The translations under genes and the position numbers were made by a program. Shown in pieces: positions 18,826 to 34,030 of a stretch of 64,000 bases of DNA (positions are counted from its first letter, which is position 1; every line of letters begins with the position of its first letter). The DNA is from a virus. The stretch lies in the IMG/VR virus record IMGVR_UViG_3300010354_000046, positions 64,001 through 128,000 of that record; one strand, written 5' to 3'. The notes beneath the pieces are model-generated. The model made no database searches, had not been told where the DNA came from, and saw nothing but the letters and a program-made list of their open reading frames with translations.

Positions 18826-20267
18826 TGCAACATTTTTATGACGGACAGATAAGAAGATACCTAACCCAAACAATACGAGTTTTAAGTAACTTTGTAGTAA
18901 AATATGGAGATGGTACTTTAGTTAGAATTCCTGTAGGCTACGGAGATGCTGATCGCCAAGCTGCCAATGTAGTTCGACAAAACACCGGATCATCTCTTAG
19001 TAGTGTTCCAAAAATAAGTGTTTATATATCTGGGTTAGATTTAGACAGTTCACGTTTGGGTGATTCGAGTTATGTTGGGAAAGTTCACATACGAGAACGA
19101 GATATCGATATTGCAACCGACAGATATACTCAAGGCCAGGGACGCAACTACACAGTTGAAAGAATGATGCCTACACCGTTTAAGTTAACCATGAAGGCCG
19201 ATATATGGACTGCCAACACTGATCAAAAATTACAGGTACTTGAACAAATTTTAGTATTATTCAATCCTAGCTTAGAGTTACAAACAACAGACAACTATAT
19301 CGATTGGACTAGTCTTAGCGTCTTAAATCTTTCACAGGTAAATTGGAGTTCAAGGCAAATTCCTGTTGGGACAGATAGTCCTATCGACATTGCTACTCTA
19401 ACTTTTGAAACTCCTATATGGATCAGTCCTCCTGTTAAAGTTAAACATCTTGGGGTTATACACAGTATTATTACTAGCATTTATCAAGACGCAGGTCGTA
19501 GTGATGATGCATACATAGAAGGCTTAGGTCATCCATTAACTTCAGGACAGAGTAATTTTGCAAATCTATTAACCAAAGAAATTGTTACAGTTACAGACTA
19601 TGTTATACAAGTATACAACGGTCAAGCAGTTTTGTTAAAAACAAATGAAGGATATGTTCCGAGAGAACCTGTTCTCGATATCCCTCAACGAAACGGAGTT
19701 CCAATTAATTGGAATGAATTGTTTGACAAATACCCTAAAAAGTATGCACCGGGGTCGACAATGATATTTTTAGTTCAGCCAAACGGGTCTGAAGTTGTTG
19801 GAACTGTACTGATTGATCCAACAAATGAAACAATATTAAAAATTAATTGGGATGCCGATACAAGGCCGCCTGATACCGATTTAGATAGCCCTGGTGACAG
19901 AAGCTCTAATGGCGGCAGAAGTTTAGGAACTTTTGACGCAATTATCGATCCTACAAAAACTTATCCTGGAAGCGGAATGACAAATTTAGAATCAGGAGAC
20001 AGATTTTTAATTATCGAGGATATAGTAGATACAAGTCTTAATGATCCAGTTGCACAAGGTTGGGGCGGGTTCGTTGCAGCAGCAAATGATATTATCGAAT
20101 GGGATGGATCGGCGTGGCAAATAATTTTTGAATCTGCTCAAGAATCTAACACCATGATCTGGCAAACTAATATATACACTGGTATACAATACGTGTGGAA
20201 TGGCGTAATGTGGGCTAAATCATTTGAAGGCGAATACGCACCAGGATCATGGAGAATAGAAATATAA
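18825..20267 (+). CDS. Tail completion / sheath stabiliser (gp15-like)
   Basis: FYDGQIRRY, IPVGYG, P.P.KL, Q.LEQIL..FNP. Confidence 0.8.
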   Translation: MQHFYDGQIRRYLTQTIRVLSNFVVKYGDGTLVRIPVGYGDADRQAANVVRQNTGSSLSSVPKISVYISGLDLDSSRLGDSSYVGKVHIRERDIDIATDRYTQGQGRNYTVERMMPTPFKLTMKADIWTANTDQKLQVLEQILVLFNPSLELQTTDNYIDWTSLSVLNLSQVNWSSRQIPVGTDSPIDIATLTFETPIWISPPVKVKHLGVIHSIITSIYQDAGRSDDAYIEGLGHPLTSGQSNFANLLTKEIVTVTDYVIQVYNGQAVLLKTNEGYVPREPVLDIPQRNGVPINWNELFDKYPKKYAPGSTMIFLVQPNGSEVVGTVLIDPTNETILKINWDADTRPPDTDLDSPGDRSSNGGRSLGTFDAIIDPTKTYPGSGMTNLESGDRFLIIEDIVDTSLNDPVAQGWGGFVAAANDIIEWDGSAWQIIFESAQESNTMIWQTNIYTGIQYVWNGVMWAKSFEGEYAPGSWRIEI

Positions 20268-20698
20268 ATGATAAAATTATCTGTAGTGGTGCTTTGATTT
20301 ATTCAAGATCCACTCAAAGATTTCTTTTATTACAAAAAGCTCAAGGTAAACATTCAGGCACTTGGGGGCTTGTTGGCGGTACAATGCACGAAGATGAAAA
20401 TCCATGGCAAGGTTTACAACGAGAAATTACCGAAGAAATAGGTAGTATGCCTGAAATAACAAAAACAATACCTTTAGAAACATTTGTCAGCAACGATACT
20501 GTGTTTAATTTTCACACTTATTTGTGTGTAGTTGAAAATGAATTTGTTCCCTTGCTAAGTGACGAGCACTCAGGGTGGGCGTGGTCAACTATGGATTCAA
20601 CACCAAAACCATTACATCAAGGTCTACGTAATAGTTTTAGTAATAAAACAGTAAAGACTAAACTACAAACTGTTTTCAATGTTATGGATTTGATTTAA
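20249..20698 (+). CDS. NUDIX hydrolase
   Basis: Nudix box GGTMHEDENPWQGLQREITEEIG; LSDEH. Confidence 0.9.
   Translation: MENRNINDKIICSGALIYSRSTQRFLLLQKAQGKHSGTWGLVGGTMHEDENPWQGLQREITEEIGSMPEITKTIPLETFVSNDTVFNFHTYLCVVENEFVPLLSDEHSGWAWSTMDSTPKPLHQGLRNSFSNKTVKTKLQTVFNVMDLI
20682..20690 (+). repeat. 9-bp direct repeat TTATGGATT, left border of the island
   Basis: Identical copy at 33503-33511. Confidence 0.6.
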
Positions 20699-22163
20699 TA
20701 TAATCGATCCATTGTTTGTGATTCACAGCATTTCTTTTCGTTTGATCTTTAATTAGGTTAATTTTTTCCGAGTAATTTTTTGTTGCGTTATAAAGATGAT
20801 GGTGATCTAAAAATTTCTTTAGCCCTTCTTTATTCTTAATCAGACCGTGACCGTATGCTACACAAGTAAAACTAGTAGATTCAAACATAAATCTATCATT
20901 TGGAATATCTTTACTTGTCAGGACTCCGTAGTTAAATTTTTCTTCCATTTCCAGTATCCATTTGGGTTTATTACCGGTCATGTATCGCCAAAAGTCGCTA
21001 TCTGTGCGGTTGGTGTTATAGAAAAATCTAATATACTTGAAGCTATTTTCATAGATTTCTGACATCGTATTATTATAGTTTCTTTGATCATACGCAAGAT
21101 GTGTTCCTTGAAATAGTCTTGTAAAATTATCAATTTGTATAATTAGATGATGAATACTGGTAGCTTCTAAAGGTTCAACAAATCCGCTAGCAAGACCGAT
21201 AGCAAGACAGTTACCTATCCATTGATTGTTATAGTAGCCGCTTGTAAAATTGATGACTCTATCGCTTTGCAATTCAACATCGTGTGTTTCAACTAACCAT
21301 CGATTAAAATCATTTTTTGCTTCTTCGTCTGTAGTAAATTTACTACTATAAACGTAACCTGTTCCTCGTCTGTTACTTAACGGAACATCAAGAATCCATC
21401 CGTTTTTGCTGGCAGTGGCTGTTGTATACGGAGGTATTTCATTAAAATTTTTAAACAACGGATTGGGTATAGTTTTATTTGTAGGTAACAATTCTGACAT
21501 ATCAATCCAGTCGGCATTGAATTGTTTAATTAAAATACGTTCGTATCCAGAGGCATCAATATAAACATCTCCTCGTATTACTTCTCCTGATTGAAGTTTT
21601 ATATAATCAATAACATTGTCTTTAAGAATTACTTCCGAAACTATTCCGTCAATGGTTTTAATTTTATCTTTAAATTTATTTTCGACATATTTGCTGAAGA
21701 GAGTTGCATCAACATGTAGTGCATGTCGATAGGATAAATCATTTGTACTAGGAATTAAATTATTTTGAAAAAAGAATTGTCCGTAATTATAGCCACCATT
21801 AGCTTGATCTTGCAAGATTTCATAAGCTTCAATGGCGTTGTAATTAAACATCACAGAGTCGATTGCTGCTAAAGATTCGTTGTGAGGAAAGCTGTGATAC
21901 CATTCGGCTCCGGGTTGTGCCCAATCTTTAAATTTAAGCCCTAATTTTATTGTTGCATTACAGTCTCTAATTAAATCTAAAGTAGATATGCCTACAGCTT
22001 TTAAGTATGCATCGAACACCGGAGTTAAACTTTCTCCTACGCCGATTCCTGGTTTTTTATGATCGTAGATTACAGTTATTTCAGCCCGATCGCCCCAGTA
22101 TGATTTAAAATAACTAGAAGCAACTGCTCCGCTTGTTCCTCCACCAATAATGACAATTTTCAT
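20682..22163 (-). CDS. Flavin-dependent tryptophan halogenase-like protein 1
   Basis: GGGTSG, GVGES, ATIKLG (catalytic Lys position), GWILDVP, FVEPLEATS. Confidence 0.88.
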   Translation of the reverse strand: MKIVIIGGGTSGAVASSYFKSYWGDRAEITVIYDHKKPGIGVGESLTPVFDAYLKAVGISTLDLIRDCNATIKLGLKFKDWAQPGAEWYHSFPHNESLAAIDSVMFNYNAIEAYEILQDQANGGYNYGQFFFQNNLIPSTNDLSYRHALHVDATLFSKYVENKFKDKIKTIDGIVSEVILKDNVIDYIKLQSGEVIRGDVYIDASGYERILIKQFNADWIDMSELLPTNKTIPNPLFKNFNEIPPYTTATASKNGWILDVPLSNRRGTGYVYSSKFTTDEEAKNDFNRWLVETHDVELQSDRVINFTSGYYNNQWIGNCLAIGLASGFVEPLEATSIHHLIIQIDNFTRLFQGTHLAYDQRNYNNTMSEIYENSFKYIRFFYNTNRTDSDFWRYMTGNKPKWILEMEEKFNYGVLTSKDIPNDRFMFESTSFTCVAYGHGLIKNKEGLKKFLDHHHLYNATKNYSEKINLIKDQTKRNAVNHKQWIDYIKSNP

Positions 22164-23617
22164 GTATGACTCCTAATTGCCAATAACATTTCTTTATGTG
22201 TTAGCACATCGTCTTGTTCAATTCTATTTGCATTTTCTAAATCTTCTAAAACTTTTAGTACATATTCTTTAGCTTCAACTGGTAGTGTGTCATACTCTTT
22301 TTTAATGCTATTTTGATCAAACAACTGTAGACCGTGAAGAATAAAAATATAGTGTAGTTCTTTAAACAAGACTGATTTCGATATTTTTTCAAAATCATCT
22401 TCAACAGGCATCTTGTATCGCCACACATTCAAATTTTGTTCTAAACTAGGAGGAAGTTTAGTATCGGCAACCTTACGCCAAAATTCTGTGTCTCGACGCG
22501 GACACACAAAATGTAATGTAATAAAATCTCGAATGTTTTCGACTATGTCTCTAAATGACTCGTTGTATTTGTCAATAGCATCTTGATTGTAATTAACTAG
22601 TCTTGTGATTAGCATAAAACATTGCTGTATAGTAGCTCCAATACTGCTTGCTTCGAGCGGTTCAACAAAACTACTACTCAACCCTAACGCACAACAATTT
22701 TTAATCCAAGCATGATCTAATGCGCCTGGTTCAAATTTAATATGTTGTCCTACTGTTATTTCATGACCTAATACTTTTTCAACTTCAATTTTTGCCTGCT
22801 CAGGAGTTAAAAAACTGTCATCAAAAATGTAACCATTGCCCCAACGGCCGTAAGTTGGTGTCCTAAAAAGCCATCCGTAATCCATTGCTTGAGCAAGACT
22901 CCACATATTATAATTTTCTGTATCTGGAGTCTGAAATACGATTGCGCTATTTGTATGAAGATATTCTTTGTGACTTATCCATTTGGCTCCAAGTTTACTA
23001 ATAAGAAACTTTTTAAAACCTGTACAGTCAGCGTAAAAATCGTATTTGTATGTTGCATCTTCACTTTTTAATAAATCTATTCCGTCGTCATTTACTACTA
23101 CTTCTGTTATTTCGTCGTGGTAGATTGTAATTTCTCGATCTAAAGCAATCTTTGTTAGATAGTCATTTAGTTTGAATGTATTGAAATGGTACTGCGCTAC
23201 TGGTGTTCTATTATTATCTAAAAACCACTTTTGCACTTTATTTTCCCAAAAAATTTCTCCAGATAATCTCCGAGAATCCATGCCGTCACTTACAAGTTTA
23301 GCATATATCATAGGATACTTTTTTAACCATACTAGATTGTATCCGTCTTGTATACTATGCATGTAATCGGGTACTCCCCAATTTTTAAAAACAATTCCCA
23401 TCTTCATTGTAGCATCAGTTTCGACTATCATTTCCCCTGTGTTAATGCCTACAAAATCTGCAAATGCACTCCAGTGTTCGGTTGATCCTTCGCCTACTCC
23501 TATAATTCCAATTCGCTTGCTACAAATAATATCGACTTGGTAATTTGGAAACCTTGTTTTAAGTATTAACGCAGAAACAAGTCCGGCTGTTCCGCTTCCA
23601 ACAACTGCAATACGCAT
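22160..23617 (-). CDS. Flavin-dependent tryptophan halogenase-like protein 2
   Basis: GSGTAG, GVGEGS, ATMKMG, GWLFRTP, FVEPLEASS. Confidence 0.88.
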   Translation of the reverse strand: MRIAVVGSGTAGLVSALILKTRFPNYQVDIICSKRIGIIGVGEGSTEHWSAFADFVGINTGEMIVETDATMKMGIVFKNWGVPDYMHSIQDGYNLVWLKKYPMIYAKLVSDGMDSRRLSGEIFWENKVQKWFLDNNRTPVAQYHFNTFKLNDYLTKIALDREITIYHDEITEVVVNDDGIDLLKSEDATYKYDFYADCTGFKKFLISKLGAKWISHKEYLHTNSAIVFQTPDTENYNMWSLAQAMDYGWLFRTPTYGRWGNGYIFDDSFLTPEQAKIEVEKVLGHEITVGQHIKFEPGALDHAWIKNCCALGLSSSFVEPLEASSIGATIQQCFMLITRLVNYNQDAIDKYNESFRDIVENIRDFITLHFVCPRRDTEFWRKVADTKLPPSLEQNLNVWRYKMPVEDDFEKISKSVLFKELHYIFILHGLQLFDQNSIKKEYDTLPVEAKEYVLKVLEDLENANRIEQDDVLTHKEMLLAIRSHT

Positions 23618-24393
23618 TACTTTATACTCCTAAAAGGACATGCATCAGTTTCAAGAGTTTTTATGAATAAATCTCGAGTTTTAGATTGTTTTAAAAATGT
23701 TTTAGCACCAGTCGACACTTGTGTTTTTTTAATCCACTCTTGTTCGCTAATAACTTGTATTTTTAATTCGACTTTTTTATCGGTAAGAGGAATGATGTGG
23801 ACAAGAGGAGTTCCAGCTTTCATAATAAATTCTTGCCTTATATTTGGAATCTCCATAAATGTATGCAAATGTAAACAATGCTGGCTGTTAAAATCAATAA
23901 CACCTCCAGCTGGCGCTAATTTATTAATCCAGAAAGGATCGTTGTTAGTAGTCCAATAGGGTTTTTGTATTAAAAATTTTGTACCAGTGGGTTCTTCTAT
24001 ATGCCATGGAAGCACTATCTTTACATGCTGATATCCATTAAACCCGCTCCATTGTCCGGGCCAGTGACTTTCTAAAGCAAACGGATTATCTGCACTAATA
24101 AAACTATATTTGCCATCAGTATCTATAATAACACTTACGTCAGTCCACAACGGAGCCATGAATCCAGTTTTAAAATAATCAATAACACCCGGGCAACCTT
24201 TAAGCGTTCCTGATGGGATTTTGTGCCTTGCGCCAGTTCCTGGATTTGTTTTTTCTTCGATTGTTTCCAAGGGCAAATCTTTAATCCAACCTGGGTAAAA
24301 TTTCATTGCTGGCATTATGGGTGTTGTTTTAGCAATCATCGAATCGTATGTAAAACAATTCAGTGTTATTTTTGATTTCTTAAAAAAGAACAT
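23617..24393 (-). CDS. Hypothetical protein (possibly DUF6065-like)
   Basis: K.CPG..D, PW, KAGTPL..IIP motifs; TAATG-coupled within the operon. Confidence 0.65.
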   Translation of the reverse strand: MFFFKKSKITLNCFTYDSMIAKTTPIMPAMKFYPGWIKDLPLETIEEKTNPGTGARHKIPSGTLKGCPGVIDYFKTGFMAPLWTDVSVIIDTDGKYSFISADNPFALESHWPGQWSGFNGYQHVKIVLPWHIEEPTGTKFLIQKPYWTTNNDPFWINKLAPAGGVIDFNSQHCLHLHTFMEIPNIRQEFIMKAGTPLVHIIPLTDKKVELKIQVISEQEWIKKTQVSTGAKTFLKQSKTRDLFIKTLETDACPFRSIK

Positions 24394-25043
24394 TATGCAT
24401 CAACTCCTACATTACCGGCAATGCTTATTCTGTAATCGTCGCTAGTATAAAACGGATTAACACTATGCGTCAGAGTTGCTGGAAAAAATAACATTTTTCC
24501 CTCAAACTCCTTGTCTACAGGTATAACCATTCCGCTATGTTGTCCTACTATGTTCGAATAATGAAATGTAAATTTAGAAACACGACGACTCTGGTCATTC
24601 ATATCGGGAAACATTCTGTCTTCGTCTTCTAAATTATAAGGAATTTTAATCCAGATAACAAAGCTAAAAATACCTGTGTGCAAGTGCGGCGGATTAAATT
24701 CATGTTTCTTTTGAAAGTTAACCCATAAATTTTTTAGTTTAAATTTCCTATTATCATTGTAAATGCCAATATCAACTTGAGGAGTGTAGTTCCATTTTTC
24801 ATCGTATAATTTAGTTAACGCAAGAGCTAAAGGCTCAACAGCATTCCAACAATCACTATTGGCAACATATTCGTGGTTTAAGTGACCTAGTAGATTTCTT
24901 TGAAATCCTTGATAAGAATCAAACTTTGATTCAAGCATTTGTTGAACGCTCGAAGTTAATACTTGCATAACATCGTTGGGTACAATTGCATCTATAACCC
25001 CAATGTTTGGTAAATCTCGAAATCTTGTGAGTAAGTTGTTCAT
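24393..25043 (-). CDS. Putative 2OG-Fe(II) oxygenase (TIGR02466-like)
   Basis: WVNFQ..HEFNPPHLH, FPA.L.HSV.P, RISIAGN. Confidence 0.82.
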   Translation of the reverse strand: MNNLLTRFRDLPNIGVIDAIVPNDVMQVLTSSVQQMLESKFDSYQGFQRNLLGHLNHEYVANSDCWNAVEPLALALTKLYDEKWNYTPQVDIGIYNDNRKFKLKNLWVNFQKKHEFNPPHLHTGIFSFVIWIKIPYNLEDEDRMFPDMNDQSRRVSKFTFHYSNIVGQHSGMVIPVDKEFEGKMLFFPATLTHSVNPFYTSDDYRISIAGNVGVDA

Positions 25044-25690
25044 ACTAATCTTAAGTTTCCTGCAACAGATATTCTGTAGTCGTCACTGGTATAAAATGGA
25101 TTTACACTATGATTTAAGTGAGATGGGAATATTGCAATATTTCCTTCAAAATTTTTGTCTATGTTTAATGAATAATTTCTAAGTTGGCCAAGTACGTTGT
25201 TATAATGAAAAGTAAACTTCGATGTTCGTGGGTCGCTGTTACTTACAACAGGAAATACTTTACGCTCGTCGTCTAAATTATAAGGAATGCGAACCCATAT
25301 AACAAAACTTAAAATTCCAGTGTGTGTATGTACAGGATTAAATTCGTATTTTTTTTGAAAATTTACCCATAGATCAGTAAGTCTTAACTGCTTCGGAACT
25401 GTTACATTAAACTGCTCGTCTAGTTCTTGGAAATAATGCCATTTTTCGTCGTACAAATTTGCTAAATGCAAAATAAAAGGCTCGATTTGCGGTATTAAGC
25501 CGTGCATGCCGTATTCGTTGTTCATATGTCCCAGCAGTAAATTTCGATAGTCGAATTCTTTATCAAACCCGCCGTTTAACATTCTATCAATATCTTGATT
25601 TAAGATACTCATTATTTCGTCAGGTACTTGGGCTATTAAAACTCCATATGTTGGAAGCTCCCGAAAATCTATAGAAAGTTGCTTGGTCAT
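25040..25690 (-). CDS. Putative 2OG-Fe(II) oxygenase (TIGR02466-like), tandem paralog
   Basis: WVNFQKKYEFNPVHTH, FPSHLNHSVNP, RISVAGN. Confidence 0.82.
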   Translation of the reverse strand: MTKQLSIDFRELPTYGVLIAQVPDEIMSILNQDIDRMLNGGFDKEFDYRNLLLGHMNNEYGMHGLIPQIEPFILHLANLYDEKWHYFQELDEQFNVTVPKQLRLTDLWVNFQKKYEFNPVHTHTGILSFVIWVRIPYNLDDERKVFPVVSNSDPRTSKFTFHYNNVLGQLRNYSLNIDKNFEGNIAIFPSHLNHSVNPFYTSDDYRISVAGNLRLV

Positions 25691-25775
25691 GTATTATCTC
25701 GTAAGTTTACTATATATCACAATCTCCCGAGTAGGTTTTAGAGTTTAGATAAATTACATAAACAAGGAAACTCAT

Positions 25776-27371
25776 ATGGACAGAAATAAGACGATTAAAA
25801 AAATAGTTATAGTTGGCGGCGGATCGGCTGGGTGGATGACTGCTGCAACATTAAAACATTTTTTTCCGTTAAATGAAGTAGTTGTTATTGAAAGTCCGGA
25901 TATTCCAATTGTGGGTGTCGGGGAAAGTACATTGGGAGGTATACGTTACTGGACCCAAGCCCTCGGTATTGATGAGAAAGATTTCCTGTCTTACACAAAT
26001 GGGTCGTACAAATTAAGTATTAAATTTACTGATTTTTATGATAAAGATGCAGGGTCTTTCCACTACCCGTTTGGAACGCCTGTGCTTACCGATGCGCCCG
26101 AAGGTCTTAACGAGTGGCAAGCAAAAAAAGTAATTTACCCCGACACGCCTGTGGAAGATTATTGCAGAACATTTTATTCGCAGATGCCTTTGATTGAAGG
26201 TAATAAGTATAGTTTGAATGAAGATGGCGATATTGACGGCTACCGAACTGATTCAGACGTAGCTTACCATTTTGATGCTCAGCTATTTGGAAGATGGCTT
26301 CGTGAACGGTACTGCATTCCGAGAGGAGTACAGCGTACAGAGGATACAGTCGTTGACATCAAAACCAACGACGACGGAATTGAAAAATTAATTTTAAAAT
26401 CAGGCCAAGAAGTTACTGCTGATTTATTTGTTGATTGCACAGGTTGGAAAAGTATGCTGCTAGGCGGTGCTCTTAAAGAACCGTTTACTTCTTATGAAGA
26501 CATGTTGCCAAATAATAGAGCATGGGCGGTACAATTGCCCTATGTAGATCCTGAAAAAGAAATTGAACCGTATACTAATTGTACTGCTATTGGACACGGT
26601 TGGTGTTGGAATATTCCGTTGTGGAGTCGTTTAGGCACTGGGTACGTGTACAGCGACAAGTATATTGACCCCGAAGGCGCTAAAGAAGAATTTAAACAGT
26701 ATCTTATGAGTAATAAGATGACTGTTCCTAGAACCAAAGAACAAGTAGATGCGTTACAGTTCCGTGATATCCAAATGAGAATTGGAATCCATGAACGCAC
26801 ATGGGTTAAGAATGTAGTAGCTATTGGGCTTTCTGCGGGGTTTATCGAACCCTTAGAAAGTAACGGATTGTTCAGCGTTCACGAGTTCCTTATGATGCTG
26901 GTAGCAGCTCTTGAAAGATCTCATACTAGCCAGTGGGACAAAGACGGTTATAACACCGCAACTTTATCTTTATTTAGAAATTTAGCAGAATTTGTAGCAT
27001 TACACTATGCCCTAAGCGGCCGCAATGATACAAACTACTGGGAAGCTATTAGCAAAAAAACATTTGATCCTGGAATGGTCAAGCGTATTCCTACTATTAA
27101 CAGAGGATTTGCAGACCTTGTAGATAAAAAGTTTTTTATGTTTGGACACAATTTACCCGGCGGCATTCATTGTATTGCAACAGGGATGAATTATTTTGTT
27201 ATGAATCGTGCAAACATTATACACGCCGAGTGGAAATTTGGGCATAACGCAAAACGTGTGTTGGATGAATTTATATTCAAAAGAAAATTCCTACAAGATA
27301 AATGGCAACGTGCAGCAGATCGATCTCCGACACTCTATCAATTTTTGAAAAATAAAATTTATAATGACTGA
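25776..27371 (+). CDS. Flavin-dependent tryptophan halogenase 3 (canonical motifs)
   Basis: GGGSAG, GVGEST, SYKLSI, GWCWNIP (WxWxIP), FIEPLESNG. Confidence 0.92.
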   Translation: MDRNKTIKKIVIVGGGSAGWMTAATLKHFFPLNEVVVIESPDIPIVGVGESTLGGIRYWTQALGIDEKDFLSYTNGSYKLSIKFTDFYDKDAGSFHYPFGTPVLTDAPEGLNEWQAKKVIYPDTPVEDYCRTFYSQMPLIEGNKYSLNEDGDIDGYRTDSDVAYHFDAQLFGRWLRERYCIPRGVQRTEDTVVDIKTNDDGIEKLILKSGQEVTADLFVDCTGWKSMLLGGALKEPFTSYEDMLPNNRAWAVQLPYVDPEKEIEPYTNCTAIGHGWCWNIPLWSRLGTGYVYSDKYIDPEGAKEEFKQYLMSNKMTVPRTKEQVDALQFRDIQMRIGIHERTWVKNVVAIGLSAGFIEPLESNGLFSVHEFLMMLVAALERSHTSQWDKDGYNTATLSLFRNLAEFVALHYALSGRNDTNYWEAISKKTFDPGMVKRIPTINRGFADLVDKKFFMFGHNLPGGIHCIATGMNYFVMNRANIIHAEWKFGHNAKRVLDEFIFKRKFLQDKWQRAADRSPTLYQFLKNKIYND

Positions 27372-27972
27372 TTTATATCCTTTATTTTCTCAGCCGGTAT
27401 TAACTGTTGATACGGACAAATCAAAGCTGGTAGATCTTGTATCTTATTGTGAAAATGTGCTACAATACAGATCTAACGCTGGAGGTAATTTTACTAGTTT
27501 GAATACAAGTGTATTAGATCTTGCCGAGTTCAGTGATGCAAAAGAACTGATTAACAACGCCATTAAAGTATACACCCAAGAAGTAATGTCCTGGACTGAC
27601 GAAGGTTTAAATTTCTTTGTAACTCAATCTTGGGTTAACAAAAATCCAAGAGGAACATGGCATCACGAACATTATCATTTGAATACAGTTTTAAGCGGTG
27701 TATTATATTTGCAAACTGTTGAGAATGATAGTATATCTTTTGTTAACAACTCGAAACCATTTTTTAAGTTTTACCCAACAGTTTCGAATATTTGGAATAG
27801 CGAAAGATTTAATATTGAAGCTAAAGATAATAGAGTAGTGTTATTTCCAAGTGGAATGTTGCACGGCGTGCCTTCGCATAATTCAAACTATAATAGATTT
27901 AGTTTGGCTTTTAACGTGTTTGTTAAAGGAAAAATTGGTAGCAAGGAAAATTTAACATATGTTGAATATTAA
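27364..27972 (+). CDS. Putative 2OG-Fe(II) oxygenase (TIGR02466-like)
   Basis: LFSQP, SWVN, HYH...SGVLY, FPS.MLHGV, RFSLAFN. Confidence 0.85.
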   Translation: MTDLYPLFSQPVLTVDTDKSKLVDLVSYCENVLQYRSNAGGNFTSLNTSVLDLAEFSDAKELINNAIKVYTQEVMSWTDEGLNFFVTQSWVNKNPRGTWHHEHYHLNTVLSGVLYLQTVENDSISFVNNSKPFFKFYPTVSNIWNSERFNIEAKDNRVVLFPSGMLHGVPSHNSNYNRFSLAFNVFVKGKIGSKENLTYVEY

Positions 27973-27980
27973 GGACTAAG

Positions 27981-28922
27981 ATGAAAAGAAACACAGCATT
28001 TTTAATCAATGGCGGAGCGGGGCGTGTACTGAGTTCCATTCCTGCTTTCGAACTTTACGAAAAAGAAAATCCCGAGGATAATTTTATCATTGTTGTTGAA
28101 GGATTTATGGAGTTATTTAAAGGGCATCCAACTTTATATAAAAGATGTTACGAGTTTAGTCATCGTAATTTATTTGAAGATAAACTACGAGATATGAATT
28201 ATTTTCAGCCTGAGCCTTACCAAGTATGGGAATACTATAATCAAAAAGCTACAATTTCTCAAGCATTTGATATTGCTATTAATAAAAAGGGGCTTCGAGA
28301 AGTACCTAAGCCCACTATTGCTCTTACCACAGAAGAAAATTTAGGGGGCGCTGAAACTCTAAAAAATATTCGCAAAGACTTCAATAATAAAAAAGCCATA
28401 GTTATTCAACCCTTTGGAAGAGGGTCAAATATGAATCATCATGCTCATAATATCGATATGGGCGGTCGATCATTTATGCCCGAACATGCTGCCAAACTGA
28501 TCAAACGCCTACAGAAAAAATATTGTGTTATTGTTATGGACGAAAAACAACACGATTTTAAAGCATTAGGATGTGAAGACGTTGTTGTACAGATGACAGG
28601 AATGACTTTACGTCGATGGATGGGCGTTATTAACTCTGCTAGCTACTTTGTCGGCTGCGATAGTATTGGTCAGCACATTGCGTATGCCTTAGGAAAACCG
28701 GCTACAATTATCATTGGGTCAACATTTAAAGAAAATGTGTCGTACCCTAACGCTAAGAATTTTAATATTATTGACCTAGGTGAAGGCCGTAAAATGTACA
28801 GCCCTATTAGAATGTGTTTTAATGAAATTGCAGATGTTAACAACGATAAACTAATGCACTTAAAAGATTCAGATTATGATAAAATTGTTGCTTCTATCGA
28901 AAACGGAATGAATAAGGTATGA
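27981..28922 (+). CDS. GT9-like glycosyltransferase (heptosyltransferase-like)
   Basis: N-terminal GGAGR, IVIQPFG, FVGCDS..QHIAYALGKP..I.GS. Confidence 0.72.
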   Translation: MKRNTAFLINGGAGRVLSSIPAFELYEKENPEDNFIIVVEGFMELFKGHPTLYKRCYEFSHRNLFEDKLRDMNYFQPEPYQVWEYYNQKATISQAFDIAINKKGLREVPKPTIALTTEENLGGAETLKNIRKDFNNKKAIVIQPFGRGSNMNHHAHNIDMGGRSFMPEHAAKLIKRLQKKYCVIVMDEKQHDFKALGCEDVVVQMTGMTLRRWMGVINSASYFVGCDSIGQHIAYALGKPATIIIGSTFKENVSYPNAKNFNIIDLGEGRKMYSPIRMCFNEIADVNNDKLMHLKDSDYDKIVASIENGMNKV

Positions 28923-29527
28923 CGTCATTTGAAATTATTCCTTTATTTCCTCAAGCGTTATATAGGGCTGTTTTTCGGCCCTTAACTTCCACTGAGATTG
29001 AAATAATTGATAATTTCCCTGTTGAAAAGCAACAGTTGGGTAATCATACTAGTCATGTACCTTACTTTTTAAACGAACCTGGATTAGAAAATTTAAAAAA
29101 AGATTTAGAAGAGCATATCGATACATATGTAAGAGAAATAATGAAAGTTGACTACAATGTGTATATTACCAATTCTTGGAAAAATTTAACCAAGCCCGGT
29201 GAGCAGCATATGATACACAACCATTCAAACAGCATTATTTCTGGATGTTTGTACCTAAGATCGAGTCACATCCAACCTACTATATCTTTTACTAGAGGAA
29301 ATTTTCCTTATCTGCTTGCATTTGAGCCAACAGAATTTACGCCATTTAACGCATTAGAGTGGACCATTCCGGTTGAGGATAACAATATTATTTTATTCCC
29401 GTCAACTATGCATCATTGTGTAAAGACCAATCAAAGTAACAAAGAAAGAATGAGTCTTGCATTTAATACATTTGTTAGAGGTAACATCAGGACTCAATAT
29501 ACAGGAGCAGATTTAATCTTAAAATAA
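28919..29527 (+). CDS. Putative 2OG-Fe(II) oxygenase (TIGR02466-like)
   Basis: PLFP, SW.N, HNHSNSIISGCLY, FPS.MHHCV, RMSLAFN. Confidence 0.85.
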   Translation: MTSFEIIPLFPQALYRAVFRPLTSTEIEIIDNFPVEKQQLGNHTSHVPYFLNEPGLENLKKDLEEHIDTYVREIMKVDYNVYITNSWKNLTKPGEQHMIHNHSNSIISGCLYLRSSHIQPTISFTRGNFPYLLAFEPTEFTPFNALEWTIPVEDNNIILFPSTMHHCVKTNQSNKERMSLAFNTFVRGNIRTQYTGADLILK

Positions 29528-29530
29528 ATT

Positions 29531-31321
29531 ATGAAAAAACCTATTTGGATTGCAGCAATTACTAGAGGGCATAATGCCAGTGTATGTTTACTAAAAGACG
29601 GAGAAATTGTTTTTAGTATTGAAGAAGAGAGATTAAGTCGACACAAATATGACGGCGGTCCTTTTGCTTCGATGATAAAAATTTTAGAATATACGGATAA
29701 ACTTGATTATCTTGTTGTTGCACACACTCAAACATTAGACGACACCGCAGGAAAAATTGACTTCACTGGAGATAACGTTTATACAGGTCTTGCAAGAAAA
29801 CTAGGATTAATCAATCGCAAAGAAAACATTTATAAACATCCACAAGTTATTGATTTAAGTCATATACACCATAAACTTCATGCTGCTTGTGCATTTTATC
29901 GAAGTGGTTTTGAAAATGCAGTTGCAGTTATTGTAGATGGCGCAGGAACATTTTTACCGTTAAGTGTAAACAACGAAGCAGTAATTGGCTGGGAAACAGA
30001 AAGTCTTTACGACTGTTCCTACCCTAGTAATTTTACAACATTATATAAACACATTGGGCTACGAGGACCTAATTCTGGTATGTTAGTTAAGAATTTTGAT
30101 AGTTCAATGTATGACGAGCCTGGTAAAACACACGAAGCGTTTATCACAGACCGTGCAGGTATTACTAAAGTATACGAAGCAGTTACCCAGTACTGTGGAT
30201 GGAGCCCTATTGAAGCCGGTAAAACTATGGGGTTATTTCCATATGGTAACAAAACAGACAAGATACCTAAGTTATTTGACGAATCAAGTGTAAGGCCGGT
30301 ATCGAACAGAAACCTTATTGTTCCTACTTATCCTAACGGTGCTGTGGTTAATCATGGCTTGTTTGAGTATTTAAATGAGCACGAAGCACAAGACATTACA
30401 TATCTTGATAACCGTCGAGACTTAGCTTATGCCTGTCAAACACAAACTCAAGAACAGTCGCTTAAATTAATAAAATATGCTGTTGAAAAAAGCGGGAATA
30501 AAAATGTAGTGTTTAGTGGAGGTTACGGTTTAAATTGTGTTGCCAATTACTATTATCTAAATGAGCTTAGAAAAGACGGTATTAACTTCTACGTTGAACC
30601 TATTAGTAATGATGCTGGAACAGCGATTGGTGCAGCATTAATGTGGTGGCACAAACTTACTAATGATTGTACTATTAGAAAAGGAAAAACACTTTATCTT
30701 GGTCCTAAAAAAACTTATAGTAATGAAGAAATTTATAAGGAAGTTAACAAAGCAAATGTACAGATAAAAGATGCATCTTATGCAGACATTGTCAAGCTGT
30801 TAACAGAAAAAAACATTGTTACACTATTCCAAGGATCTAGTGAAAACGGTCCAAGAGCATTAGGAAATCGTAGTGTACTATTTGACCCTAGGTTTGCAGA
30901 TGGTAAAGACTATGTTAATAATGTAAAACACAGAGAATATTTTAGGCCGTTTGCAGGCAGTATTTTACAAGAATTTGTACACGAATGGTTTGATTTACGT
31001 GGCATGGAGGACACTCCTTTTATGATGTATGCTGTAAATTGCCAACCAGGAGTAGAAGAAAAAATACCAAGTATCATTCATGTCGACGGAACTTGTCGTA
31101 TACAAACAGTAACACAAGAACAAAATTATCATTACTATAATTTGATTAAAGAATTTTATAATCAAACAGGATGTCCAATTATCTTTAATACTAGTTTTAA
31201 CTTAGGTGGTGAACCATTAGTTGAAACATTAGAAGATGCTATATGGACCTTAACAAATTCGGACATTGAATATTTGTTCTTACCTGAGTATAATAAATTA
31301 ATCATTGTTAAAAATAAATGA
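29531..31321 (+). CDS. Carbamoyltransferase (NodU/CmcH/TobZ family)
   Basis: EEERLSR.K, HH.LHA..AF, VDGAG, GK.MGL, GG.GLNCVAN, DAG.AIGA, GPRALGNRS, K.RE.FRPFA, HVDGT.R.QTV, NTSFN. Confidence 0.95.
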   Translation: MKKPIWIAAITRGHNASVCLLKDGEIVFSIEEERLSRHKYDGGPFASMIKILEYTDKLDYLVVAHTQTLDDTAGKIDFTGDNVYTGLARKLGLINRKENIYKHPQVIDLSHIHHKLHAACAFYRSGFENAVAVIVDGAGTFLPLSVNNEAVIGWETESLYDCSYPSNFTTLYKHIGLRGPNSGMLVKNFDSSMYDEPGKTHEAFITDRAGITKVYEAVTQYCGWSPIEAGKTMGLFPYGNKTDKIPKLFDESSVRPVSNRNLIVPTYPNGAVVNHGLFEYLNEHEAQDITYLDNRRDLAYACQTQTQEQSLKLIKYAVEKSGNKNVVFSGGYGLNCVANYYYLNELRKDGINFYVEPISNDAGTAIGAALMWWHKLTNDCTIRKGKTLYLGPKKTYSNEEIYKEVNKANVQIKDASYADIVKLLTEKNIVTLFQGSSENGPRALGNRSVLFDPRFADGKDYVNNVKHREYFRPFAGSILQEFVHEWFDLRGMEDTPFMMYAVNCQPGVEEKIPSIIHVDGTCRIQTVTQEQNYHYYNLIKEFYNQTGCPIIFNTSFNLGGEPLVETLEDAIWTLTNSDIEYLFLPEYNKLIIVKNK

Positions 31322-31833
31322 TACAACATTTTTCAGAATTTGTTGAGCCGTGGCTGCATAACAAAGCTAAAGAACAATTGCTGAGTCCTATGCTGGACTG
31401 GAATTTTCCTACATTTGGTGGTCAAGATACTGATATAAAGTATGCTTGTTTTGGTAGATGTGCTCTAAATTTAAGTAAAAATTATGTAAACTGGAATAGA
31501 GTTGAATCGTTAACTTATGTGTTAGATAACTGGTTAGAGCGTAACAAGAATTGGTTTCAAGTTGATCTTGTCGGTAGATGTATAATGAATTTTTATACTC
31601 CGGGCCAGCAAACAGAGTGGCACACAGATAATACTTATAACATGCCAGGACTTTATAGCCTACTGTATTATGTAAATGATGCTGACGGTGGAACAGAATT
31701 TAAGGATCACAAATATTACCACCAGGAAAACACAGGAATATTGTTCGATTCTTATACATTGCATAGACCAATAGTATCTACGGTGCCCCGAAGAATAAGT
31801 GTAAGTTGGATAATTCAAGGACGAGTATTATGA
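31318..31833 (+). CDS. 2OG-Fe(II) oxygenase (prolyl-hydroxylase-like)
   Basis: WHTD, YYVNDADGGTEF, distal H, RISVS. Confidence 0.8.
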   Translation: MIQHFSEFVEPWLHNKAKEQLLSPMLDWNFPTFGGQDTDIKYACFGRCALNLSKNYVNWNRVESLTYVLDNWLERNKNWFQVDLVGRCIMNFYTPGQQTEWHTDNTYNMPGLYSLLYYVNDADGGTEFKDHKYYHQENTGILFDSYTLHRPIVSTVPRRISVSWIIQGRVL

Positions 31834-33017
31834 AAGTTGCAGTATTGGGCGTGGGCACAGCTGGAATTATGTCGCTGTGTCATGCATTACGATGGTTATG
31901 TCCAAAAGACAGTACTGTAACTTCAATATATGATCCCAAGTTTCCAATTTTAGGAATTGGAGAAACATCTCAACCTGGATTCCAAACTTTATTATTTGAG
32001 TCAACCGGTTTCACTTTTTTAGACGATGCTGATAAATTGGATGCAACCATTAAATTAGGTGGAATGTGGAAGAATTGGAGAGACGATGACTTTAATGCGT
32101 GTCTTACTGCACCATCTTATGCTATACATTTTAATAATTTTAAATTGAAAGAATTTTGTTTTTCGAGGTTTAATAAAAAATACCAAAGTAAATTTTTAGT
32201 ATCCGAAGGTAACATAGACAGTATAACTAATGCAGGAACTTGTGTGCTAGTAGTTGTCGACGGCATAGAATATCAATACGACTATGTTATTGATTGTAGA
32301 GGTTATCCTACAGACCTGAGTGAATACTATGTTGTTGAAACTCCAACTGTAAATAGTGCATTGGTAAACATAATTAATGAACCGGGTACATGGAACGCTA
32401 CTGTTAACCAAGCTACAAAGAACGGCTGGATGTTCGGGCTACCTTTACAAACAAGACAAGGGTGGGGATATCTATATAATGATAAACTTACTACAAAAGA
32501 AGAAGCAATAAAAGATATTGAAGAAATCTTTAATAAAGAGAACATAGAATTAAAAGAATTTAAATTTAACAGTTATCATGCTAATACATTTTTTGACGGT
32601 AGAATTTTAAAAAACGGAAACAGGGCGTTCTTTTTTGAACCAATAGAAGGGCAGGCGGGATTTTTTTACGAAATCGCCTTGCGGTATCTTGTAGATTATG
32701 TGTATGGCCAGTGTTCTGTAGCAGATGTTAACAGACACCTTTTAGATGCAGCAAAAGATTTAGAATTATTCATTAATTTTATATATCACGGCGGCAGTAA
32801 GTTTCAAACAACTTATTGGAGTCATATATCAAAAGTGGCTAGAGAAAAACTAAACAACAACGAAAAATGGAATTATATTGTTTCTACCGTGAATAATTAT
32901 TTAAAATTTGGTGGGCAAGAGCCGCCAACTAACACTATAGGTCGTTGGAGTGTTCACCACTGGAAAATGTGGGATAAAAAGTTAGGCTATAATTATTTTT
33001 ATGATAAAAACATTTAA
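31830..33017 (+). CDS. Short, divergent flavin-dependent halogenase-like protein 4
   Basis: Start MKVAVLGVGTAG at 31830 (ATGA overlap); GIGETS, ATIKLG, GWMFGLP, FFEPIEG. Confidence 0.8.
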   Translation: MKVAVLGVGTAGIMSLCHALRWLCPKDSTVTSIYDPKFPILGIGETSQPGFQTLLFESTGFTFLDDADKLDATIKLGGMWKNWRDDDFNACLTAPSYAIHFNNFKLKEFCFSRFNKKYQSKFLVSEGNIDSITNAGTCVLVVVDGIEYQYDYVIDCRGYPTDLSEYYVVETPTVNSALVNIINEPGTWNATVNQATKNGWMFGLPLQTRQGWGYLYNDKLTTKEEAIKDIEEIFNKENIELKEFKFNSYHANTFFDGRILKNGNRAFFFEPIEGQAGFFYEIALRYLVDYVYGQCSVADVNRHLLDAAKDLELFINFIYHGGSKFQTTYWSHISKVAREKLNNNEKWNYIVSTVNNYLKFGGQEPPTNTIGRWSVHHWKMWDKKLGYNYFYDKNI

Positions 33018-33513
33018 TAAATTTGTACCCGATTGGCTACACCGCCGGGCGCATGAACAGTTACTAAGCCCGTATGTAGATTGGCACTTTCCTGGAAACG
33101 GGGGCTATTACGGTGACATCGATAAAGCATGTTTTGCTAAATTGTTGTTTGATGAAGAGCGAAATTATTCAGATTTTTCAGGAGTTGATTCTTTAGTTTA
33201 TGTGCTAGAATCTTGGTTAGATCAAAATAAAAGTTGGTTTAAATTTGAAAGATTGAACCGTTGTATATTAAATTTTTATACACCGGGTATGACTATCGGA
33301 TGGCATACAGATCACTCTAATTCTAGGTACCATACATTAATTTATTATGTAAATGACAGCGACGGAGGAACTGAGTTCGAGACTGTCAAAGTCCCACATA
33401 GAGAAAATTCCGGTGTTATATTAAAATCAAAGGACTCACATAAAAATATGGAGTCCTCTGTTCCGCGACGCATAAGTGTCGCATGGATTTTAGTCGGCGA
33501 TATTATGGATTAG
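33001..33513 (+). CDS. 2OG-Fe(II) oxygenase (prolyl-hydroxylase-like), paralog of 31318
   Basis: WHTD, YYVNDSDGGTEF, distal H, RISVA. Confidence 0.8.
   Translation: MIKTFNKFVPDWLHRRAHEQLLSPYVDWHFPGNGGYYGDIDKACFAKLLFDEERNYSDFSGVDSLVYVLESWLDQNKSWFKFERLNRCILNFYTPGMTIGWHTDHSNSRYHTLIYYVNDSDGGTEFETVKVPHRENSGVILKSKDSHKNMESSVPRRISVAWILVGDIMD
33503..33511 (+). repeat. 9-bp direct repeat TTATGGATT, right border of the island
   Basis: Identical copy at 20682-20690. Confidence 0.6.
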
Positions 33514-34030
33514 TAGCTTTGCCCCACTTGTCCTCAGGATTCCAAGGTGCTTTGGGCCAAGGTACTCCAAGATGGCTTTTAAGTTTTGTCAAATCAATAT
33601 TATCTGTCATATCTCTTAGAGCCTGTCGATAATCGGCCCATGCTTGCTTATCTTCTGGACTCAGTGGACTATCAGGCATTTGTGTCCAATCACTCGTAAC
33701 AAATTTATGTAATCGTTGTCCGTGTATCCATCGGCGATATTTTTCTCCCGGGCTAATTTCTGTAAATACCCAAGTTTGTTCAATACTACCATCAGGATTT
33801 TTTACAATTTCTCCCGGAGCAACTTCTTCCCATTCTTCTACTATCGGAGGATAGGCGTTTTTAATTTCGACAATACTTTGAGAAGCCAGTAACCCAGGAG
33901 TTAACTCGTTGAAAGTCAACACCCTGGTTTGAGGATCTTCAATAGCAAATAAATGTCTTACATTTTCTTCGATTAAGGGAGGGCCCGATGGCAACCCGTC
34001 TTCGTCAATGTACGTGTAAAGTTTCTGCAT
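33503..34030 (-). CDS. Phage tail fibre assembly chaperone
   Basis: SDWTQMPDSPL...WADYRQALRD...WP motif; directly downstream of the fibre gene. Confidence 0.8.
   Translation of the reverse strand: MQKLYTYIDEDGLPSGPPLIEENVRHLFAIEDPQTRVLTFNELTPGLLASQSIVEIKNAYPPIVEEWEEVAPGEIVKNPDGSIEQTWVFTEISPGEKYRRWIHGQRLHKFVTSDWTQMPDSPLSPEDKQAWADYRQALRDMTDNIDLTKLKSHLGVPWPKAPWNPEDKWGKATNP

Follow-up and report, generated by a model that had tools for sequence, protein, structure and literature searches.

An uncultured, freshwater, T4-like phage, whose lineage is abundant in freshwater, carries next to its tail-fibre genes a compact island of modifying enzymes, which may serve to tailor the distal fibres of the phage itself. 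It is part of the window analysed here, that is bases 64001–128000 (64 kb) of the 141.6 kb linear IMG/VR virus record IMGVR_UViG_3300010354_000046. It occupies positions 20682–33513 between neck and tail-fibre genes and comprises 13 open reading frames (ORFs), which code for four flavin-dependent halogenases (Hal1 to Hal4), six 2-oxoglutarate (2OG)-type oxygenases forming three paralogue pairs, an O-carbamoyltransferase, a GT9-fold glycosyltransferase and a dUTPase-fold protein. Twelve of these 13 consecutive genes belong to just four enzyme families, which is far from chance. As the record is ~38% complete according to CheckV, absence of psbA, GmhA, dUTPase and flavin reductase genes from it proves little.

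We propose that the island constitutes a late-expressed tailoring system composed of two modules. In the first module, the GT9-fold transferase and the O-carbamoyltransferase, fed by a phage-encoded sugar-nucleotide cassette located ~61 kb away, would transfer a heptose-type sugar onto a hydroxyl group and O-carbamoylate it. The second module, which consists of four anciently diverged halogenases, the dUTPase-fold cysteine protein and the three pairs of 2OG oxygenases, would halogenate electron-rich aromatic rings and hydroxylate C–H bonds, with reduced flavin being provided by the host. The acceptor would most likely be the distal fibre and adhesin proteins of the phage itself, which are produced simultaneously from the neighbouring late operon, and the chemistry of the receptor-binding surface would change as a result. 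At the level of the predicted enzymes, this reading of both modules is solid, and the combination of hydroxylation, glycosylation, carbamoylation and halogenation put forward in the original prediction fits the families found. That the island tailors the phage's own distal fibres is an attractive possibility, which we put forward tentatively. A more specific version, in which halogenation, hydroxylation and O-carbamoyl-heptose are added late to the Gly/Cys-rich adhesin and the giant fibres and the dUTPase-fold protein acts as a halogenase accessory, is doubtful.

The island consists of two divergent operons

The original prediction described 13 genes in two tightly coupled divergent operons, and all ORFs were recovered at their predicted positions. 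In the order of transcription, the minus-strand operon comprises the genes for Oxy5b (25040–25690), Oxy5a (24393–25043), the dUTPase-fold protein (23617–24393), Hal2 (22160–23617) and Hal1 (20682–22163), which overlap by 1–4 bp. The plus-strand operon starts with Hal3 (25776–27371), Oxy5c (27364–27972), the GT9-like protein (27981–28922) and Oxy5d (28919–29527) and continues with the carbamoyltransferase (29531–31321), Oxy3a (31318–31833), Hal4 (31806–33017) and Oxy3b (33001–33513), all junctions being overlaps or gaps of ≤8 bp. The sole real intergenic space of the island is a stretch of 85 bp between the two operons (25691–25775), and therefore a precursor-peptide ORF does not fit. In agreement with the original prediction, Pfam searches found no gene for a non-ribosomal peptide synthetase or polyketide synthase (NRPS/PKS), a carrier protein or a precursor peptide among the 13 island genes or their flanks, and no Flavin_Reduct match anywhere in the 141.6 kb record. 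Likewise, psbA was not found in the record. Signal peptides, membrane segments and long hydrophobic stretches are absent from the island proteins, indicating that all enzymes are cytoplasmic, that is, they reside where the fibres fold.

Four diverged halogenases and three pairs of 2OG oxygenases

All four halogenases matched the Trp_halogenase profile (PF04820), whose gathering cut-off is 21 bits. Hal1 (493 aa; 300 bits), encoded by the last gene of the minus operon, contains the motifs GGGTSG and FVEPLEA as well as the catalytic Lys, and its best PDB matches are Trp 5/6-halogenases (~1e-51). Hal2 (485 aa; 272 bits) has >2500 environmental homologues, and its start codon shares 1 bp with the stop codon of the dUTPase-fold gene. 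Hal3 (531 aa; 356 bits), encoded first in the plus operon, is of the VirX1 type. Its best PDB match is VirX1 (6qgm; 1.2e-94, aligned over residues 7–425), an iodinating enzyme from cyanophage Syn10, with which it shares the full set of flavin-dependent halogenase (FDH) motifs (GGGSAG, Lys, WCWNIP and FIEPLES); identity to the Syn10 gene is ~39% by tblastn. VirX1 possesses a large, open active site and has no known natural substrate (PMC8407142). Hal4 is short (403 aa; 92 bits in two stretches) and probably starts at the ATG at 31830 (395 aa) rather than at the TTG at 31806, since this ATG forms an ATGA overlap with the preceding stop. It keeps GxGxxG, the Lys and FFEPIE, and the alignment shows that an internal stretch of ~60 residues and most of the C-terminal region are lacking.

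Invariant in the alignment of the four halogenases are G14, G16, G19, K79, E358, P359 and E361 (Hal3 numbering; the Lys corresponds to K79 of PrnA). At the WxWxIP position, Hal1, Hal2 and Hal4 read GWILDVP, GWLFRTP and GWMFGLP, respectively, that is, the first Trp and the Pro are kept and the second Trp is lost. Pairwise identities range from 22–30% (23–26% for Hal1, Hal2 and Hal4 as compared to Hal3), which identifies the four as old paralogues rather than recent copies. The predicted halogenases should act on electron-rich aromatic rings, and since the 141.6 kb yielded no flavin reductase match, they would depend on the host for reduced flavin. With four halogenases, and five in the uncultured relatives L021 and L022 (see below), as compared to at most three matched places among the best 30 phage records listed, the island is the richest in halogenases among the islands compared here.

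The oxygenases were assigned through two Pfam families, for both of which the cut-off is 27 bits. Oxy5a (216 aa; 39.9 bits), Oxy5b (216 aa; 40.3 bits; first gene of the minus operon), Oxy5c (202 aa; 59.1 bits, and 60 bits with TIGR02466) and Oxy5d (202 aa; 63.3 bits) match 2OG-FeII_Oxy_5 (PF13759) and are of the TIGR02466 type. The P4H-type proteins Oxy3a (171 aa; 25.3 bits, just below the cut-off) and Oxy3b (170 aa; 29.9 bits; last gene of the plus operon) match PF13640. Identity within the pairs amounts to 50% for Oxy5a/Oxy5b, 49% for Oxy3a/Oxy3b and 35% for the remaining pair. Thus, the four halogenases, six oxygenases and carbamoyltransferase named in the original prediction were all recovered by Pfam, with Oxy3a falling just under the cut-off and being 49% identical to Oxy3b. 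A PDB search with Oxy5d returned 2rg4 and 3bvc, both uncharacterised proteins, and a PDB search with Oxy3b returned no match. JmjC matches were not obtained with any island protein in the Pfam search. As read from the sequences, Oxy3a and Oxy3b carry HTD...H...RRIS, and the corresponding residues in Oxy5a are HLH...H...RIS. The predicted oxygenases should hydroxylate C–H bonds.

Three of the Oxy5 proteins, namely Oxy5a, Oxy5b and Oxy5d, have HxH (HLH, HTH or HNH) at the position where 2OG oxygenases usually have HxD/E, and Oxy5c has HHE; the distal His and the RxS motif are kept in all four. The HxH of these TIGR02466/Oxy_5 paralogues may represent a metal site made of three His residues.

A dUTPase-fold protein is a frequent partner of the halogenases

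The gene at 23617–24393 on the minus strand encodes a 258-aa protein of phrog_7084, which belongs to no Pfam family, has 1367 cluster representatives and is homologous to gp43 of cyanophage Syn9 (tblastn, 3e-9). Foldseek alone provided weak matches to dUTPases (TMq ~0.3). When the AlphaFold2 (AF2) model (pLDDT 88.6) was compared by VIA-align, dUTPase 3t60 scored highest (Z 9.1, rmsd 3.0 over 125 residues), and the top 22 rows were all dUTPases or dCTP deaminases (Z 9.1 to 4.4), as compared to values of ≤2.9 for unrelated folds. On account of this Z score and the clear gap to unrelated folds we accept the dUTPase fold, which was reached independently of Iyer et al. (2010). According to the model, the protein adopts the trimeric-dUTPase β-barrel fold without being an ordinary dUTPase. 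Invariant residues of the family are C67, K125, P129, C252 and P253; none of the dUTPase sequence motifs is conserved in the family, and PF00692 (dUTPase) has no match in the 141.6 kb record at E values up to 10. A relation to DUF6065 is a lead only: Pfam gave one weak DUF6065 match among 36 family members, and the Atlas has DUF6065 on 12–44% of the members of the nearest clusters.

In Syn9/Syn10, S-CREM1, S-RIM44, Sf-FR1, P-TIM40 and Sf-FP1/CH3, the dUTPase-fold gene directly follows the gene of a VirX1-type halogenase, its start being located within ~60 bases of the halogenase end and often overlapping it. In the window, the gene is coupled to Hal2, and in the related locus L027 it is preceded by two Hal4-like genes together with an oxygenase gene. 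Other halogenase carriers, e.g. Sf-CH11, lack it. Thus, the dUTPase-fold protein is a frequent, but not obligatory partner of the halogenases.

In a more distant relative (L024, 3720–11624), the dUTPase-fold gene is surrounded by genes for a B12-binding radical SAM enzyme, one Oxy_5 protein, four Oxy_3 proteins and a weak DUF6071-like protein. Evidently, the halogenase/oxygenase array can recruit radical SAM chemistry too.

The glycosyltransferase, the carbamoyltransferase and a remote sugar-nucleotide cassette

The plus-strand gene at 27981–28922 encodes a 313-aa orthologue of cyanophage T4-GC302 (phrog_8954, 1.6e-122) with 1359 homologues, which are mostly environmental or from phages. The glycosyltransferase assignment of the original prediction found no confirmation by profiles, as the scores with Glyco_transf_9 (PF01075; 19.8 bits versus a cut-off of 22) and TIGR02201 (24.4 versus 170) stayed below the thresholds, whereas the fold came out clearly in structure modelling. 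Foldseek analysis of the AF2 model (28 sequences, pLDDT 87.7) retrieved TibC (6.8e-10), WaaC (7.7e-10), the GT9 entry 3tov and WaaF (1.9e-9) as top matches, with TMq values of 0.53–0.69. The next glycosyltransferase/epimerase structures (WaaG, UDP-GlcNAc 2-epimerase) followed at 1e-5 or worse, with two plant NDH-supercomplex chains ranking in between (8e-7 and 5e-6). A profile of the family yielded no meaningful match when compared with PDB sequences. As judged from the model, the protein has a GT9 fold, and this fold does not reveal the acceptor. The GT-B fold is shared with the CAZy GT9 members TibC/Aah and WaaC/WaaF at a sequence identity of 9–15%, and a further likeness to the GT9 heptosyltransferases is that, in relatives, genes for heptose nucleotides are found linked to it. 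Near the N-terminus, the signature NGGxGR does not vary within the phage family.

The O-carbamoyltransferase (29531–31321, plus strand; 596 aa) is an orthologue of T4-GC303 and belongs to the NodU/CmcH/TobZ family. Both its Kae1-like N-terminal domain (Carbam_trans_N, 89.7 bits) and its YrdC-like C-terminal domain (Carbam_trans_C, 193 bits) score above cut-off, and the PDB matches are 7xb6, NovN, GdmN and TobZ (1e-57 to 1e-41). With 136.5 bits versus a cut-off of 1000 for the NodU equivalog NF041651, it is a member of the family, but not NodU itself. Since all solved relatives are O-carbamoyltransferases, we predict O-carbamoylation of a hydroxyl group.

One point missed by the original prediction is that sugar-donor genes are present elsewhere in the genome. 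A sugar-nucleotide cassette on the minus strand, outside the window and ~61 kb from the GT9-like gene (C1:20523–23640), encodes an SDR epimerase, a PfkB kinase, a CTP_transf-like (adenylyl/cytidylyltransferase-like) protein, a cupin and a second SDR epimerase, and is preceded by a sigma-70-like site (TTGACT-17-TACACT). The encoded proteins are 32–55% identical to the products of the heptose genes located beside T4-GC302/303 in P-SSM2, S-CAM1 and S-SSM7. A phosphoheptose isomerase (GmhA, SIS domain) was not found in the 141.6 kb record. The fact that the GT9-like gene, the carbamoyltransferase gene and the sugar genes are co-retained though unlinked argues for one functional set.

In cyanophages, the T4-GC302/T4-GC303 cassette, known as 'LPS' (lipopolysaccharide) or heptose genes, is carried by P-SSM2, P-SSM5, S-CAM1, S-CAM3, S-SSM7 and Sf-FS3, with the GT9-like and carbamoyltransferase genes being adjacent. 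Placement in the fibre module is common to this cassette and the island. The island GT9-like protein is 43–49% identical to the products of the S-CAM1, P-SSM2 and S-SSM7 genes that adjoin the carbamoyltransferase gene, and the identity to the Nol-like carbamoyltransferases is 47–66%, the highest value being reached with gp121 of S-SSM7. In P-SSM2, S-CAM1 and S-SSM7, the pair is followed by hldE-like (heptose-kinase/adenylyltransferase), gmhA, cupin and epimerase genes. The genome studied here also contains orthologues of the adenylyltransferase-like, PfkB kinase, cupin and epimerase genes. In contrast to the cyanophage arrangement, however, an oxygenase gene separates the pair in the island, and the sugar genes are not adjacent to it.

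The record additionally encodes, at C1:52355–53308 (minus strand, outside the window), a 317-aa protein limited to the Kae1-like Carbam_trans_N domain; its gene is located between those of a DnaB-like helicase and a Toprim primase. A similar half-size 'nol' gene adjoins the full carbamoyltransferase gene in S-SSM7.

Late-type motifs precede both operons

The divergent control region (25691–25775) contains the 8-mers GATATATA on the minus strand (25711–25718) and GATAAATT on the plus strand (25748–25755). When the spacers of four relatives including the island were aligned, the only conserved blocks were AGATAAATTA (plus) and TGATATATA (minus), each of which ends 21 nt before the ATG of its own operon. 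These blocks resemble a word that is distributed in the genome in a promoter-like manner. That is, 17 of the 21 NATAAATA sites in the 141.6 kb are oriented in sense and stand shortly before a gene start, and all six ATAAATA sites in the window are located just upstream of a virion gene in sense (17380+, 59815-, 46345-, 11766-, 9479- and 6534-). In addition, TATAAATA is absent from the 64 kb window as compared to 9.2 expected occurrences. This looks like a strongly counter-selected late-promoter word, which mostly takes the form GATAAATA in this phage. GATAAATA is found 33 nt before gp40 in Syn9, and CATAAATA (canonical NATAAATA) 36 nt before the GT9-like gene in S-CAM1. The early-type ribosome-site tag GGAGCG was detected on none of the island genes, and sigma-70-like sites are not enriched (63 found versus 70 expected).

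The conserved near-consensus late motifs in front of both operons make late expression of the island probable, and they speak against early-only expression as well as against modification of DNA. In a metatranscriptome library (run X20), the genes of Hal3, the GT9-like protein, the chaperone and the fibre are represented by short, exactly matching fragments. The contigs of this run are short, so that strand, transcript starts or expression level cannot be read from them, and as such an RNA library may contain DNA, they are weak evidence for expression.

Linkage to fibre genes is conserved in relatives

The flanks, that is neck and NUDIX genes on one side and chaperone and fibre genes on the other, are as originally described. 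Upstream of the island lie the genes for a gp15-type sheath stabiliser (18825–20267) and a NUDIX protein (20249–20698). On the other side, the 3' end of the Oxy3b gene overlaps the convergent gene of a fibre assembly chaperone (33503–34030, minus strand; Phage_tail_APC, 1e-12) by 11 bp, and next to this gene lies that of a 774-aa Gly/Cys-rich fibre (34062–36386, minus strand; phrog_4474, weak Gly_rich_2 match), which contains 20.8% Gly and 3.9% Cys.

No match was obtained when the complete island was compared by megablast with 50,697 phage records, and relatives were detected only via protein-level searches. Three uncultured relatives from other samples (L019, L021 and L022) exhibit the same gene order at 56–81% protein identity, which is similar to the value for the neck genes (64–84%). 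In L019, the fibre and chaperone genes beside the island are the same, and Hal4 is absent; L021 and L022 carry a fifth halogenase. Protein searches otherwise point to T4-like cyanomyoviruses (Kyanoviridae). Among these, Syn9 and S-RIM44 have a tail-fibre gene and fibre-assembly genes, after which come a pair of halogenase genes (the second being of the VirX1 type), the dUTPase-fold homologue, many oxygenase genes and gp13. More generally, homologous cassettes in Syn9, S-RIM44, Sf-CH11, S-SSM7, P-SSM2 and S-CAM1 directly follow tail-fibre and fibre-assembly genes or lie among them, ahead of gp13, and in P-SSM2 and S-CAM1 the GT9-like cassette has tail-fibre genes on both sides. Such linkage in relatives had been proposed as a test of the fibre hypothesis, and the outcome in L019 and these six cyanophages is positive, albeit not decisive. 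A 106-aa protein of the fibre module (36402–36722) points in the same direction: its cyanophage homologues occur only in P-SSM2/5, S-CAM1, S-CAM3 and marine single-cell virus contigs, and these carriers form a subset of the carriers of the GT9-like and carbamoyltransferase genes. Three records of Acidithiobacillus phage AcaML1, which have no GT9-like match, match the 106-aa protein weakly (33%, 1e-5).

The idea that the island is unprecedented apart from VirX1 had to be abandoned, as the gp40–gp54 halogenase/dioxygenase array of Syn9, including the dUTPase-fold gene, was described by Iyer et al. in 2010, who proposed organohalogen secondary metabolites as its product (PMC2938197). This array, which is also present in Syn10, the source of VirX1, encodes two Trp-type halogenases, ten tandem dioxygenases and the dUTPase-fold Cys protein. 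It resembles the island in having several distantly related Trp-halogenase homologues including one of the VirX1 type, tandem 2OG oxygenases of several families and a dUTPase-fold protein with conserved Cys, in its location between fibre/fibre-assembly and neck genes and in the late-type promoter in front. The island differs by its four halogenases (five in L021/L022) instead of two and its six oxygenases instead of ten, by the absence of a detectable counterpart of the JmjC/MINA member gp49, which in Syn9 does match JmjC and is apparently optional, and by its division into two divergent operons as compared to one co-directional run. Moreover, the GT9-like and carbamoyltransferase genes are interleaved here, and the phage is of a freshwater lineage and has no psbA in the available 141.6 kb. 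The genes prnA, carbamoyltransferase and 2OG oxygenase have been listed as sporadic cyanophage genes (Sullivan et al. 2010, PMC3037559). Hence, the island is a combination of two cassettes known from cyanomyoviruses, the Syn9-type array and the T4-GC302/303 pair. New are the conservation in the relatives, the late-like motifs at both operons, the remote sugar cassette and the location of the dUTPase-fold gene after a VirX1-type halogenase in cultured cyanophages of seven kinds.

The acceptor of the modifications

The phage's own fibres are favoured as acceptor by the fibre synteny in several genera, the co-occurrence with the fibre module, the probable late timing and the cytoplasmic nature of the enzymes, and also by the open active site of VirX1 and the lack of most of the C-terminal region in Hal4. 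There are precedents as well, namely protein heptosylation by the GT9 enzyme TibC and the glycosylation of mycobacteriophage virions, in which capsid and tail proteins are decorated by transferases that the phage itself encodes (Freeman et al. 2023, cited in PMC12801897). The latter case involves other enzyme families and phage groups and no halogenation, hydroxylation or carbamoylation, and it was demonstrated by experiment, whereas decoration by the island enzymes is deduced from genes. Several points weigh against the fibres. The site between fibre and neck genes is a known hyperplastic region of cyanomyoviruses (PMC3037559), and co-location may therefore reflect nothing but tolerance to insertion. 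Linkage to fibre genes is equally expected for enzymes that alter the receptor bound by the fibre. Apart from TibC/Aah, the characterised GT9 enzymes, as well as the NodU/TobZ enzymes, act on glycolipids or small molecules, and the dUTPase fold modelled for the protein linked to the halogenases is suggestive of a nucleotide-like ligand. To our knowledge, no such modifications have been reported in the published virion proteomes of cyanophages, in which they were probably not searched for. Furthermore, four more Oxy_5 paralogues and one more Oxy_3 are encoded outside the island in the 141.6 kb record, among replication/early genes, as is the half-size carbamoyltransferase. As to timing, both spacer blocks are one-mismatch variants of GATAAATA, and the same 8-mers occur elsewhere in the record mostly inside genes. 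Of the fibre-tailoring interpretation given originally, the enzymes with their chemistry and the fibre linkage stand; more than the late timing or the identity of the sugar, it is the fibre as substrate that we infer, and we do so tentatively.

Other destinations of the same chemistry have to be considered. According to the published reading of the Syn9 array, the enzymes would serve secondary metabolism (Iyer et al. 2010, PMC2938197): a free amino acid, e.g. tryptophan, or a host-made small peptide would be halogenated, hydroxylated, glycosylated and carbamoylated, leading to a soluble organohalogen in the infected cell such as a signal, a compound resembling a siderophore or a toxin that acts on competitors or grazers. 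For the halogenases as well as the carbamoyltransferase, all solved relatives act in natural-product pathways, for which the gathering of long-diverged paralogues in one operon is typical, and TonB-type receptors occur in bacterial halogenase/dioxygenase neighbourhoods (PMC2938197). However, the island, its relatives and the cultured homologues contain no scaffold enzyme, carrier protein, precursor peptide or exporter, late-type promoters would leave a lytic phage little time to benefit, and the constant site inside the fibre module would go unexplained; we regard such a product as unlikely. Less likely again is remodelling of the host envelope, in which the GT9-like protein and the carbamoyltransferase would place a carbamoyl-heptose on the LPS core or another surface glycan of the host, thereby masking the receptor, excluding superinfecting phages or preventing progeny from sticking to debris, with halogenases and oxygenases being mere passengers. 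This view is in line with the usual annotation as 'LPS genes' (PMC12801897, PMC7029224). The JGI family name is ADP-heptose:LPS heptosyltransferase, the fold matches WaaC and WaaF as well as TibC, the phage possesses its own sugar-nucleotide cassette behind a sigma-70-like promoter, and receptor-modifying genes would co-vary with the fibre type too. A 7-O-carbamoyl-heptose occurs in the LPS core of Pseudomonas aeruginosa. Yet, the GT9-like protein remains far below the heptosyltransferase cut-offs of Pfam and NCBIfam, its family is essentially restricted to phages and environmental sequences, late-type promoters would act late for newly made LPS to be exported, and the conserved interleaving and translational coupling of the pair with oxygenase and halogenase genes is unexpected if the latter were passengers.

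Alternatively, there may be no single pathway at all, and the hyperplastic insertion site would hold independent auxiliary genes, each acting on a different host metabolite. Draw-down of 2OG and DNA repair have been proposed as roles of cyanophage oxygenases (Sullivan et al. 2010, PMC3037559), oxygenase paralogues are scattered through the genome, and the content of the island varies, Hal4 being absent from L019, a fifth halogenase being present in L021/L022 and read depth over Hal4 and Oxy3b being low in run X14. This is still less probable in our view, as order and translational coupling are kept at 56–81% identity in contigs of different samples, the same gene combinations recur in different genera, and the GT9-like gene, the carbamoyltransferase gene and the sugar cassette are co-retained even when unlinked. 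Very improbable, finally, is a role in nucleotide or DNA chemistry, in which the dUTPase-fold protein would bind a pyrimidine nucleotide for modification by the linked halogenase as well as the oxygenases, the transferase and the carbamoyltransferase, and hypermodified or halogenated bases would protect the DNA. The dUTPase/dCTP-deaminase fold (Z 9.1), the position of its gene directly after VirX1-type halogenase genes in cultured cyanophages, the NUDIX gene adjoining the island, the half-size carbamoyltransferase gene between helicase and primase genes and the existence of nucleic-acid modifiers among 2OG oxygenases (PMC2938197) would fit. On the other hand, the residues invariant in the dUTPase-fold family are Cys, Lys and Pro, with no dUTPase motif conserved and no dUTPase HMM match at E 10; the oxygenases are P4H-like and TIGR02466-like rather than TET/JBP or AlkB; and the island resides in the late virion region behind late-type motifs, away from the replication genes. 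In addition, the phage assembles and matches at 99–100% in many short-read runs, which is weak evidence against heavy modification.

Halogenases, 2OG oxygenases and 'LPS' heptose/carbamoyl genes of cyanophages have been catalogued since 2005–2010, and a natural substrate is known for none of them. The island packs all these enzymes into one conserved and probably late unit beside adhesin genes. If the proposed tailoring of the phage's own fibres is true, the fibres would be the first virion proteins known to be halogenated, and the VirX1 family would obtain its first natural function. Tailored fibres would add a new level to the way in which host range is determined in aquatic phages, and the modification would be of a class new to viral proteins. 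The natural role of these enzymes, which are abundant in phages, has been in question for about fifteen years. Even if the fibres are not the target, the island would still be a pathway carried by a phage that leads to organohalogen or carbamoyl-sugar products.

Additional observations on the fibre module, island ends and annotations

The 3' ends of both island operons overlap late flanking genes convergently, by 17 bp with the NUDIX gene (20682–20698) and by 11 bp with the chaperone gene (33503–33513), and a clear bidirectional terminator is absent at both overlaps. Transcription from the two sides may therefore collide.

The C-terminal half of the Gly/Cys-rich fibre (34062–35213) contains dense Cys clusters, e.g. 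CCQCLSCGCGFCMCFQCIC and HCGCCTGCGC, interleaved with polyglycine, which is unusual for a fibre tip. A collagen/P4H model found no support, as Gly-X-Y is limited to two short runs in the 774-aa fibre and does not occur in the giant fibres.

The phage was found near-identical in DNA runs of several freshwater, riverine and aquaculture studies. Contigs of three DNA runs from different studies skip a 176-base segment within 35782–35959 of the fibre gene ('same length, diverged'); this segment, located in the N-terminal half of the fibre, seems to be a cassette that varies between strains. In the aquaculture run X14, depth over 31608–33599, which covers Hal4 and Oxy3b, drops to 0.3–3.7 as compared to ~10 elsewhere. 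The fibre-proximal end is the variable part of the island.

In the cyanophage islands of Syn9 (L031, 12198–17122), S-SSM7 (L001, 17364–17918) and S-RIM44 (L030), genes labelled 'DNA endonuclease V' (denV, T4-GC100) by RefSeq, as well as Syn9 gp52, which is labelled 'minor coat protein', score as 2OG-FeII_Oxy_3/Oxy_5, JmjC or DUF6445 and not as pyrimidine-dimer glycosylase or coat protein; phrog_274 also carries the endonuclease label. Syn9 gp46, the second of the two 'minor coat protein' genes tested, matches no Pfam family. The denV and gp52 labels are likely propagated mis-annotations.

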